Positions 45,001-48,000 of a stretch of DNA of 64,000 nucleotides are shown piece after piece (within the stretch, counting starts at the first letter, position 1; each line of letters begins with the position of its first letter). A program made the position numbers. Source of the DNA: Trichormus sp. ATA11-4-KO1 (GTDB lineage Bacteria; Cyanobacteriota; Cyanobacteriia; Cyanobacteriales; Nostocaceae); the NCBI GenBank assembly GCA_019358915.1, contig JAHHIM010000036.1, forward strand, positions 256,001 through 320,000, in the 5' to 3' direction.

Positions 45001-48000
45001 GATGATTTATGGTTTCATTGGCTATGTTCTGGCAGAACAATTTCCTCAATGGCAGAAACAAATTTTCGCCTTAACTGTGATCTTAATTGTTGCCATAGGT
45101 TTTAGTCGCCTGTATCTGGGAGTACACTGGCCTACTGATGTACTAGCTGGTTATGCCGTAGGTTTAGGATGTTTAATTGCTTGTATTTTCATTTGGGAGT
45201 TGGAGCAAAAGTATCGTTTTTCCGGGAGATATTAGGAAGCATCTTCAAAGCAACTTAATCTGTGATGAAAAGTTAATGATATTTATGAAGTCTTAAGAGT
45301 TATCATCGTTACCAAGGGTTAAGTTCAAAAGCTTGCAAAAAGTGAACTATTCCAAAGTTTACACTTCAAAGCAAGGCTGTCCTATTAATTTGGTTGGCAA
45401 AACGGGACAAGCGGTGCAAATTTCCATTCATTTACCCAGTCAATATATCTGTGCCAATCGCGAACGGATATTACCAGATTGGAAACAACGACCTGGTTTA
45501 TGGGTTGTGATTGTCTTACAGCAATCACGATTTCAACTAGTAAAAAGTACAGTAGAGATAGAGATAGAGAAAGAACATTTGCGGGAAAAGTTTATGAGAT
45601 TTGGCTGTGACTTGGCATTTAAGTTGCGCGATCGCGGTTATCTTACAGACCTCATCGACCCCCGTACTGGCTATCCCCTACTATCTCATCCAGGAGCAAT
45701 TCCTCACAACGATACAGCAGTGGTGAAAGCTTTGCTCAACTATCCCGTAATTAAAAATGAATGTTGTGTCCTAGTGCATCCAATTTGGGGTGCGGCAGTT
45801 TATCCCAGTGTCATAATATCAGAAGCCCCACCAATTATTATGGAATATTTCGTCAAAGAGATTGCTCCTGTGCATGGATGGAATCAACAGTCTTAAAAAT
45901 GGGGAGTAGGGGGGTTTGTAGTCAACAGTAGAAACTATGATATTGCAACCCTCCAATCATGCAGCTTGCTACTTCCCCCTGATGAGTGGACGCTATGAAG
46001 TTAAGCCGGGGATGATGCCTTTTGGTTGCTGTTTGGGTAATGGTCAGGCTGACCAGCAGGTGTTTCAAATCGATGATAATTTTACTGATTACCGCCAGAG
46101 TAAACTTTTAGCTCGTGCAGAACGGTTGAGCAAATACTACCAGACCTCTAATTATTCTCAGGCTGTAGCAGGTGCGATCGCTCGTTTAATAATTACTCGC
46201 CTCACCCAAGAACACCCACAGTATTTTGATTGCCAAAAAATAGCCAATACCCTCATCTTCCATAACCAACTTACCCAAGAAACCCTCTGCTTAAATACAG
46301 ATTGGCAGTTACAGCAGGTACAAGGTAGTCAAGTTGTTCCCGCTTACGCCTCTATCCTTGATGCTTTAGCCGCGCAGGTAAGGAAGATTTCACCGTTGTC
46401 TGTCGTGCTGAAGATGGTAGCAATTGGCTGAGTGCAGTACATCTTTGCTATCCCAATCATTGGTCAGCCGAGGAAAAAATTGGCAAAAACTTTGCTGCTA
46501 TCCATGCACCCGTAGCCGGTATGGAAAAAATCAATCGCCGAGCGGATGCGATCGTCAATACAATGATTACTCAGAAACCAATGGTACGGTTCGCCTGGGG
46601 TTTAAGTACAGACACTCGCCTCAACCATCATCCCGAACCACCGCCTGATGTGTCAGTCAATGATTGGCAAGGTAGAAGCTTTGACCAGCAGCAACCGCAA
46701 CTTTACTTACGAATTGAACGACAGGTGATTTGGGGATTACCAGAATATGAAGCGGCGTTGTTTACTATTCGTACCTACTTTAGAGATTGCAGTGTGGTTA
46801 AACAAGACCCAGTATTACGGTCTAAACTTTACGCTGCAATTGAGTCTATGACGTTAGCATCGCTGGTGTATAAAAGATTGACAGAGAGTAAAGATAGTAT
46901 TTTGCAATGGCTAGATGAGATTTGATTATTAAACTTCTGTTGAAAATGCTCCCTTAATTTTTGGCTAGATTGTCAACTAATCTCCAAATTTTTGGCTTCA
47001 TCCTTGACTTTCTCAATTTTACTGTAACCTGTTTCTTTAACAAATTTCTTTGCCGCCTCAATCAGATACTCATAATAGGTACGAGCGACGATAGATAACT
47101 GTTTCCCAGAGGGATGCACCATATACCAAGTTCGTTGAATGGGAAAGTGTTCTACATCCAAAATGCTGAATTCTGTAGAGTCTGGCATCAAAGTATGACG
47201 AGATAAAACAGAAATTCCTAAACCCCCCGCGATCGCTTGTTTAATTGCTTCATTACTCCCTAATTCCAGTTTAACTTTTACTTTCACCCCATGTTCTTCA
47301 AACAGCTGTTGTACAGCCTGGCGAGTTCCTGAACCCGGTTCTCGCATAATAAAAGGTTCATTTGTTAAACGTTGGATGGAGATATTTTTCTCTTTGGCTA
47401 AGGGATGATTAACGGGAGCAAACACTACTAAGGGATTATCTAAAAATGGCTGATAGCTGACATCTAGATGATCTGGGACTTGACTCATAATGTACAAGTC
47501 ATCCATATTATTGCTCATCCGTTCCAAGATGCGTTCGTGGTTCGTTACTTGCAGCGAAATCTCAATTCCTGGATAAAGTTGACAAAATGGGCCTAATAAA
47601 CGGGGGATAAAATACTTTGCCGTTGTAATCACTGCTAAGCGCAATTGGCCTTGTTTGAGACCTTTTAAATTAGCCACAGTCATTTCAAACTGGGCTATGG
47701 TTTCAAAAATTTGCCGACAAGTAGCAAATAATTCTCGTCCTGCTTCTGTTAAGAATAAACGTTTTCCTACCTGCTCAAATAGTGGCAACCCTACCGATTT
47801 TGTGAGTTGTTTAATTTGCATGGATACGGTGGGTTGGGTAAGAAATAATTCTTCCGCCGCACGAGTAAAGCTACTGTGCCGTGCTGCTGCCTCAAACACT
47901 TTCAACTGGTGTAGCGTCGCCTGATTCAAGGGTAATTCTCCTCTAATAGCGATGAGATAGATATAAATCTAGTATCACTGAACACTTGCAGTTGATGTGG

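Follow-up and report, generated by a model that had tools for sequence, protein, structure and literature searches.

The protein analysed here is a homologue of human and mouse CblD (MMADHC). In the accessible text of PMC12501144, the residue that ligates cobalt when human CblD is complexed with CblC is Cys261. According to the available part of bioRxiv 10.1101/2023.07.25.550549, each of the two cysteines of the human protein can bind aquocobalamin, Cys262 is the resolving cysteine, that is, the nucleophile releasing B12, and a variant with only Cys262 (C261S) forms thiolato-cobalamin with no transfer to methionine synthase.

Two recent papers describe CblD as 'absent in bacteria' or 'eukaryote-only' and infer different loading of bacterial and human methionine synthase (bioRxiv 10.1101/2023.07.25.550549; PMC13376404), and bacterial MetH is said to need no specialised chaperone (PMC13376404), in the portions of these texts that are accessible. 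The CblD column of Supplementary Table S2 of PMC8085122 holds many cyanobacterial accessions, from Nostoc, Calothrix, Leptolyngbya, Acaryochloris, Gloeothece, Gloeobacter violaceus and G. kilaueensis, along with one Orientia accession; the main text, in its accessible part, is silent on the cyanobacterial ones. PMC11439496 and its preprint, in the parts available, treat CblD in algae only. No paper discussing cyanobacterial CblD was found in the full-text literature, a body of text to which subscription papers are largely external.

The conflict with the wording of the two recent papers, to which the initial annotation drew attention, is thus genuine. The distribution is less new than it had claimed, since cyanobacterial accessions are already in the PMC8085122 supplement, and NCBI names for these relatives already follow the Pfam family. 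The new elements are the single-cysteine, apparently CblC-less form of the protein, the identity of Cys262 as the family invariant, the deep cyanobacterial spread, which extends into a strongly divergent family, and a motif also present in algal and fungal CblD.

Gene structure and predicted fold

The window is the whole stretch of 64,000 nt that was analysed (JAHHIM010000036.1, contig positions 256,001-320,000), and all coordinates are positions in it. The features of the locus are as follows.

44285..45235, + strand: upstream neighbour with an HMA_2-like domain and a PAP2 phosphatase, not a conserved partner
45342..45896, + strand: CblD/MMADHC-family gene, 184 aa, core domain only, without N-terminal extension
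45519..45572, + strand: Gln60 to Lys77 (human Gln180 to Arg197); Glu74 corresponds to human Glu194, and Lys77 is found in 130/130 cyanobacterial sequences
45657..45671, + strand: DPxxG motif, Asp106-Gly110 (human 226-230)
45741..45791, + strand: beta-hairpin Tyr134-His146 and HPxWG motif, one residue shorter than in human CblD and most non-Nostocaceae homologues
45762..45764, + strand: Cys141, conserved hairpin cysteine, equivalent to human Cys262
45765..45767, + strand: Cys142, not conserved (47/115 near homologues), equivalent to human Lys263
45937..46925, + strand: downstream neighbour, HODM_asu-like gene in two frames, near CblD in 9/134 loci

The CblD reading frame is uninterrupted and begins with GTG, with TTG at 45333 as an alternative start. 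The gene is present in one copy in the Trichormus sp. genome, and neither an Rfam riboswitch nor a sigma-70-like promoter was found near it.

The sole Pfam match of the protein at E<=0.1 is PF10229 (E 1.4e-11, 45.1 bits against a curated cut-off of 27). It has no match to any NCBIfam model and none to the CblC/MMACHC profile PF16690, and appears as a single domain with no iron-sulfur domain match in Pfam or NCBIfam. Searches of the PDB with phmmer returned human and mouse CblD as the sole matches at E<0.01 (best 1.7e-9), reproducing the earlier observation, and a profile built from the alignment matched PDB CblD at E 4.6e-20. The predicted model, for which 65 homologues were used, has a mean pLDDT of 91 and is folded from approximately residue 10. 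All 8 of its Foldseek matches at E<=0.001 are CblD (TMq 0.61-0.71), and in a wide structural search CblD scored Z 18.6 and 17.2, the next best match being RdhA at 7.2. Further down were QueG (6.3), PceA (6.2) and CblC (5.6), with unrelated folds interspersed at 5.7-6.7. By sequence and by fold, the cyanobacterial protein is a true CblD/MMADHC homologue, as initially annotated.

Register of the hairpin cysteine

Cysteines were numbered from the invariant histidine of the hairpin (human His267, here His146), which places human Cys261 at H-6 and Cys262 at H-5. Among 120 near homologues the motif is readable in 115, and H-5 is cysteine in every one of them, in agreement with the invariance reported for Cys141. 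In the same sequences the residue at H-6 is one of Lys, Gln, Glu, Arg, Asn and Asp; 47 have cysteine at H-4. Cys141-Cys142 had been taken for the cobalt-ligating pair of human CblD, an equivalence that does not survive this numbering: Cys141 corresponds to Cys262, Cys142 to Lys263, and the human-261 position is occupied by Glu140. Two alignments with mammalian CblD, gap-free across the hairpin, likewise set the cyanobacterial cysteine on the second human one. Because the Nostocaceae hairpin is shorter, a pairwise alignment appears to set CC on CC.

The comparison was extended to 130 distinct genome-derived cyanobacterial sequences, with three broken or partial copies left out. All 130 have the hairpin cysteine, 127 at H-5 and the other 3 one residue on; the Cys261-Cys262 pair in human register occurs in 1, and a pair displaced by one residue in 29. 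The cysteine is also kept in 20/20 further loci, including six of f51 (f numbers denote the cyanobacterial families sampled and G numbers the genomes), although overall identity falls to about 30%. In eukaryote-type (algal/fungal-type) sequences H-5 is cysteine in 113/113 and the human-register pair is present in 94/113, so that 19 of these also have no 261 cysteine. As read from the alignments, what is invariant across the family is Cys262 rather than the cobalt ligand Cys261, which suggests that Cys262 has an older function missed in studies of the human protein. With Cys262 present and Cys261 absent, the cyanobacterial protein would be a CblD member without the human hand-over chemistry. 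The earlier remark that either cysteine can ligate cobalt agrees with the binding reported for human CblD, and it understates the problem, since the human variant with only Cys262 gave no transfer (bioRxiv 10.1101/2023.07.25.550549, accessible part).

Other positions of the human domain are retained to different degrees: those of Glu194, Arg197 and Glu244 are Glu/Asp in 123/130, Lys in 130/130 and Asp in 117/130 cyanobacterial sequences, respectively, and the clinical positions Asp246 and Tyr249 are not conserved among the 130. There is no redox CxxC motif.

The protein is predicted to be an accessory (pseudo)cobalamin-binding holder or buffer, a reading to which we give about an even chance. 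The thiolate of Cys141 would bind the cobalt of the cell's own pseudocobalamin as upper ligand, so that CblD would hold, buffer or protect free cofactor rather than act as an obligatory loader. Release to an apo-enzyme, most commonly MetH, would proceed via an outside thiol or reductant, given that CblC is apparently missing as an upstream partner and that the vicinal cysteine is not there in human register. Such a role is supported by a CblD fold far above the rest, the next folds including the B12 enzymes RdhA and QueG; by the retention of the hairpin cysteine at low identity; by the thiolato-cobalamin still formed by human CblD with Cys262 alone; and by the Glu/Asp, Lys and Asp kept at the Glu194, Arg197 and Glu244 positions. 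It also agrees with the gene content of the host genome, in which CobQ, QueG, MetH, NrdJ and B12 radical-SAM genes are present and MetE was not found, and with the production of mostly pseudocobalamin by cyanobacteria (PMC4850488, accessible part). Against it stand the non-conservation of Asp246 and Tyr249 and the lack of any genomic signal tying CblD to B12. Since aquocobalamin can be ligated by nearly any exposed thiol, conservation of the cysteine alone is not B12-specific.

Distribution and genomic context

In 401 genomes drawn across the phylum, CblD was found in 67 by the Pfam model and in 75 by our own alignment profile. It is present in 44/45 Nostocaceae genomes and in 0/14 control genomes, so the near-universality in Nostocaceae and absence from controls described earlier were both borne out. 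Neither the alignment profile nor Pfam found it in any of 29 genomes of f25 or of 225 genomes of 12 other families, and it was not found in 24/25 f3 genomes. A class-wide draw gave CblD in 91/301 genomes, including 16/17 in f47, 19/25 in f24 and 6/7 in f51, with 0/21 in f31, 0/26 in f32 and 0/10 in f27. The gene has been lost many times across the class.

These losses, along with the broken copies in G226 and G170, the partial match in G182 and long branches in f6 and f9, would fit a near-neutral relic in the course of being lost. Against this are the high retention in Nostocaceae, f47 and f24 and the pattern of substitution: differences per codon position among 30 Nostocaceae copies are 0.19, 0.14 and 0.43, a third-position bias showing that the gene is under purifying selection. 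A relic is therefore highly improbable.

A pattern scan of GTDB species genomes, which misses f51-type sequences, confirmed 414 stretches. Among the 80 scan matches listed, 71 are cyanobacteria by name, 7 are unlabelled, and one each is labelled Sericytochromatia and Acetobacteraceae. The Sericytochromatia-labelled match is 96% identical to a Stenomitos copy. The Acetobacteraceae bearer was rejected: its contig is Nostoc-like, belongs to a mixed bin and shows 97% identity and flanks of cyanobacterial type. A short-alignment search for longer or fused forms, with 8000 candidates scored, gave 6 proteins, none bacterial by name. The claim that CblD among prokaryotes is confined to cyanobacteria is supported by the scan matches listed and by the control genomes, and is not proven.

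Co-occurrence with B12 genes was surveyed in a panel of 38 CblD bearers (three degenerate) and 42 non-bearers, in which kin are not independent and raw counts are compared. MetH is present in 38/38 bearers and 42/42 non-bearers, MetE in 2/38 versus 6/42, NrdJ in 19/38 versus 27/42 and the B12 radical-SAM clade in 34/38 versus 38/42; the cobalamin riboswitch is missing from 8/39 versus 1/41, with G000 replacing one non-bearer. No pattern in this 80-genome panel links CblD with any of the five. PF16690 was above cut-off in 0/1, 0/38 and 0/5 bearer genomes, a search covering 44 bearers (Trichormus sp. and 43 others) in which control genomes also gave none and so provided no positive control. Of the gene content reported at the outset, MetH and NrdJ are thus confirmed; CblC was not detected, with the same caveat on controls.

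Bearers of MetH in which neither MetE nor CblD was found make up 36/42 of the non-bearers, and CblD is therefore dispensable for MetH loading. This bears directly on a human-style role in which Cys141, or Cys141 with Cys142, would dock the cofactor on MetH and a disulfide would release it. In the shorter Nostocaceae hairpin Cys141 could come to lie at the tip (the model has a turn at 139-141), the shifted Cys-Cys pair recurs in 29/130 sequences, and MetH accompanies CblD in every bearer tested. Besides the dispensability, however, the second cysteine is missing in about three quarters of sequences, human C261S gave no transfer (bioRxiv 10.1101/2023.07.25.550549) and bacterial MetH is said to need no specialised chaperone (PMC13376404), as far as the accessible parts of both papers go, which makes a dedicated MetH loader improbable. 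A complex prediction for residues 10-184 with the C-half of this genome's MetH (546 aa) scored 0.00 against a mark of 0.32; controls were not folded, and the result is not used as evidence.

Gene neighbourhoods were collected from 61 loci of sampled genomes (about 6 kb each side) and 80 named loci (up to 5 kb), 134 of them distinct; the 212 neighbour proteins scanned were cluster representatives and close neighbours rather than every ORF. Across the scanned neighbours of the 134 loci no B12 gene recurs as a conserved neighbour; the instances seen are cbiX, at a distance of four genes in one locus, and B12 radical-SAM genes close by in three. Nor is an association with Argonaute seen: Piwi was not found among the scanned neighbours, in the Trichormus genome or in four f51 genomes. 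The proposal of a candidate (pseudo)cobalamin chaperone remains plausible, and neither co-occurrence nor neighbourhood lends it genomic support.

The exbB/exbD genes had been placed next to CblD in some loci. exbB does lie within about 6 kb in 18/134 loci and is co-directional in Nostocaceae, as might be expected if CblD were the cytoplasmic receiver of TonB-ExbBD corrinoid uptake. However, 11/12 exbB loci of the first set are from one family and share the unrelated syntenic devBCA, trkA and argD; trkA is commoner near CblD (28/134), exbB gaps are at least about 600 bases, no receptor gene occurs among the scanned neighbours, and exbB is absent beside the Trichormus copy. exbBD was rejected as an operon partner, the proximity being read as mostly Nostocaceae synteny, and an uptake receiver appears extremely improbable.

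The gene most often found near CblD (38/134 loci) is convergent, carries no annotation and encodes two Cys-Cys pairs. It was considered as a supplier of the missing cysteine and rejected, since 69/75 CblD bearers do not have it. The gene occurs in 43/401 genomes, of which only 6 are CblD bearers; being mostly outside the bearers, it is a sign of old synteny, which speaks for vertical descent of CblD in those orders rather than for a partnership. No CblD remnant was found beside it in six CblD-less genomes. Its own protein model (pLDDT 54) is too poor for a structural search.

The neighbours also bear on a B12-independent role, in which a thiol-redox or adaptor protein would have kept the CblD fold, the partner of its cysteine being a protein or small thiol instead of cobalt. 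Co-directional sulfur-redox genes recur in separate lineages. The gene immediately upstream is msrB in G158 and G047 and encodes a DCC1-like thiol-disulfide oxidoreductase in three genomes of f9; two f51 loci have egtB-egtD upstream. The lack of co-occurrence with B12 genes and the absence of the cobalt-ligating Cys261 point the same way. Each of these neighbours is, however, limited to a handful of related genomes, B12-handling proteins are the nearest in fold, there is no redox CxxC, and the same single cysteine is universal in the eukaryote-type sequences. A thiol-redox role is accordingly considered rather unlikely, and the pseudocobalamin holder is retained as the preferred reading.

Ancestry and comparison with known CblD proteins

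The nearest non-cyanobacterial relatives are the short CblD proteins of green algae, stramenopiles, early fungi, an aphelid and amoebae. Animal-type sequences were not among the 403 proteins retrieved, so the trees are without animals. In a 90-row tree, with 10 of 30 Nostocaceae kept and broken copies left out, cyanobacteria and named eukaryotes were parted by a branch with support of 99/90; the cyanobacterial side included five metagenomic or unnamed rows, one of which is Lyngbya. Adding 12 cyanobacteria and removing 28 rows gave a 74-row tree with the same branch at 100/99, the bootstrap being not fully settled. The cyanobacterial subtree largely follows families. The best explanation is that cyanobacterial CblD is old, mostly inherited vertically and often lost.

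The most divergent family is f51, whose CblD has about 30-35% identity to the others and keeps the single H-5 cysteine; its MetH is also among the most divergent (61-63%). After the WG/YG of the hairpin motif, f51 has VYIGS, comparable with VVVGS in mammals and WVFLGE in Trichormus QueG. [YF]P follows WG in 36/36 non-f51 cyanobacterial-side and 34/34 eukaryote-side rows. In f51, mammalian CblD and QueG there is no proline at this point, and glycine occupies the next position. A YGxxV[YF][IL]G stretch is similar in f51 proteins and Trichormus QueG; the f51-QueG profile match was not significant (E 0.14). Under the approximately unbiased (AU) test, a grouping with cyanobacteria and green algae together on one side was not rejected (p 0.45), nor was one in which the non-f51 cyanobacteria form a side (p 0.34). 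The one shared post-WG character hints at gene exchange between eukaryotes and non-f51 cyanobacteria.

Gloeobacter is the earliest-branching cyanobacterial genus. The occurrence of CblD in many families, including f51, together with the two published Gloeobacter accessions, the family-following subtree and the post-WG proline, may point to a cyanobacterial origin. It is tentatively suggested, as a possible if doubtful scenario, that CblD may have been born in cyanobacteria as a single-cysteine corrinoid holder from a QueG/RdhA-type fold, and that eukaryotes acquired it, with a second cysteine and CblC as its partner being added later. The trees are compatible with this and with an early eukaryote-to-cyanobacterium transfer. 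If the origin were cyanobacterial, the human B12 chaperone would have its ancestral form, free of CblC, in this protein.

With a small, soluble and apparently CblC-free homologue in tractable cyanobacteria, the statement that the protein is absent from bacteria stands corrected. The homologue also offers a natural single-cysteine variant for cobalt-sulfur chemistry and opens the origin of B12 trafficking in eukaryotes to testing. These points are limited in weight by names already in databases, by a published supplement listing the sequences, and by a function predicted from sequence and modelling.

Compared with known systems, the closest by sequence are the short PF10229 proteins of algae, stramenopiles, early fungi and protists, which share a length of about 160-200 aa and the HPxWGxxxYP motif. 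They always have cysteine at the 262 position (113/113), as do 127/130 cyanobacterial sequences; unlike cyanobacterial CblD, most have the Cys261-Cys262 pair (94/113). In fungi, CblD without CblC is also common (47 versus 20 of 59 proteomes; PMC8085122, accessible part). The QueG and reductive dehalogenase B12-binding domains and CblC, with its nitroreductase-like fold, are weak fold matches at 8-12% identity, and cyanobacterial CblD differs from them in having no iron-sulfur domain and no PF16690. The C-terminal domain of human and mouse MMADHC (PDB 5CV0, 5CUZ, 6X8Z, 9MRS, 5A4R) has the same fold (Z 18.6, rmsd 2.2 over 147 residues), the DPxxG motif, the hairpin with its His and Trp-Gly, the cysteine at position 262 and residues matching Gln180, Glu194, Arg197 and Glu244. 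At 25-27% identity, the 184-aa cyanobacterial protein differs from human CblD in having no Cys261 equivalent and no N-terminal extension, and thus no disordered, mitochondrion-targeting N-terminus, and, with the exception of f51, in having YP[S/G/A] after WG where mammalian CblD has VVG.

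Genes flanking CblD in the window

The immediate surroundings of the CblD gene in Trichormus sp. ATA11-4-KO1 comprise the following features:

43002-43100 and 43183-43242, two long self-complementary stretches
44285-45235, gene for a PAP2 phosphatase whose N-terminal HMA_2 match is weak and below the cut-off (E 7.8e-6)
45937-46925, HODM_asu-like (DUF3445) gene
46973-55236, genes for a LysR regulator and carboxysome ccm proteins, plus an ndhF-type gene, following the CblD locus

The HODM_asu-like gene switches frame near position 46380 and is considered a pseudogene or an assembly error; its homologues elsewhere are intact and about 340 aa long. 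Genes for ccm-type BMC proteins or LysR regulators lie close to CblD at only a few other loci. The two self-complementary stretches, which gave sub-threshold matches to miRNA precursors on both strands, are probably intergenic palindromes.

Recurrent neighbours of CblD in other genomes

Sulfur-redox genes are found beside CblD in several genomes. At two loci of f51, the cyanobacterial family most divergent in CblD, egtD immediately precedes CblD and has the same orientation (L224:2598-5439 and L223:4981-6756); the former locus also contains egtB. An EgtD-like gene was also found after CblD at two Nostocaceae loci (L083, L088). In small sets of genomes a co-directional sulfur-redox gene sits immediately upstream of CblD, either msrB (L040, L046, L159) or a DCC1-like gene (L056-L058).

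An unannotated protein of 120-150 aa, in which two Cys-Cys pairs and several Trp residues are invariant (motif GxCCRLFDRxxLPxPCCRxxW), is encoded near CblD at the following example loci, and further relatives exist:

L161:5503-5871, minus strand, double-Cys-Cys protein gene
L148:5441-5884, minus strand, double-Cys-Cys protein gene
L035:5647-6033, plus strand, double-Cys-Cys protein gene

The protein has no match in Pfam, NCBIfam, PDB or Atlas. It occurs in all 29 genomes of one family (f25) and in most families outside Cyanobacteriales, and is absent from the Trichormus genome. None of the genomes of the same order in the 401-genome sample of the phylum encodes it, despite its presence at two named loci from Crinalium and Chroococcidiopsis. 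In the sampled genomes having both genes, CblD and the double-Cys-Cys gene are convergent (6/6).

Copy state, record labels and eukaryote-like forms of CblD

CblD is broken in two genomes, G226 (L059) and G170 (L061), near kin of which retain it, while G392 contains two copies (L051, L052). One bearer record, labelled Acetobacteraceae, includes a Nostoc-like contig (L187); such mixed bins can falsely raise counts of CblD outside cyanobacteria. In three metagenomic proteins (P0344, P0377, P0406) a CblD of eukaryotic type is fused with a methyltransferase domain (PF10294). Another metagenomic sequence, the unnamed P0188, falls on the cyanobacterial side in both trees and has a Cys-Cys pair of eukaryote-like form.
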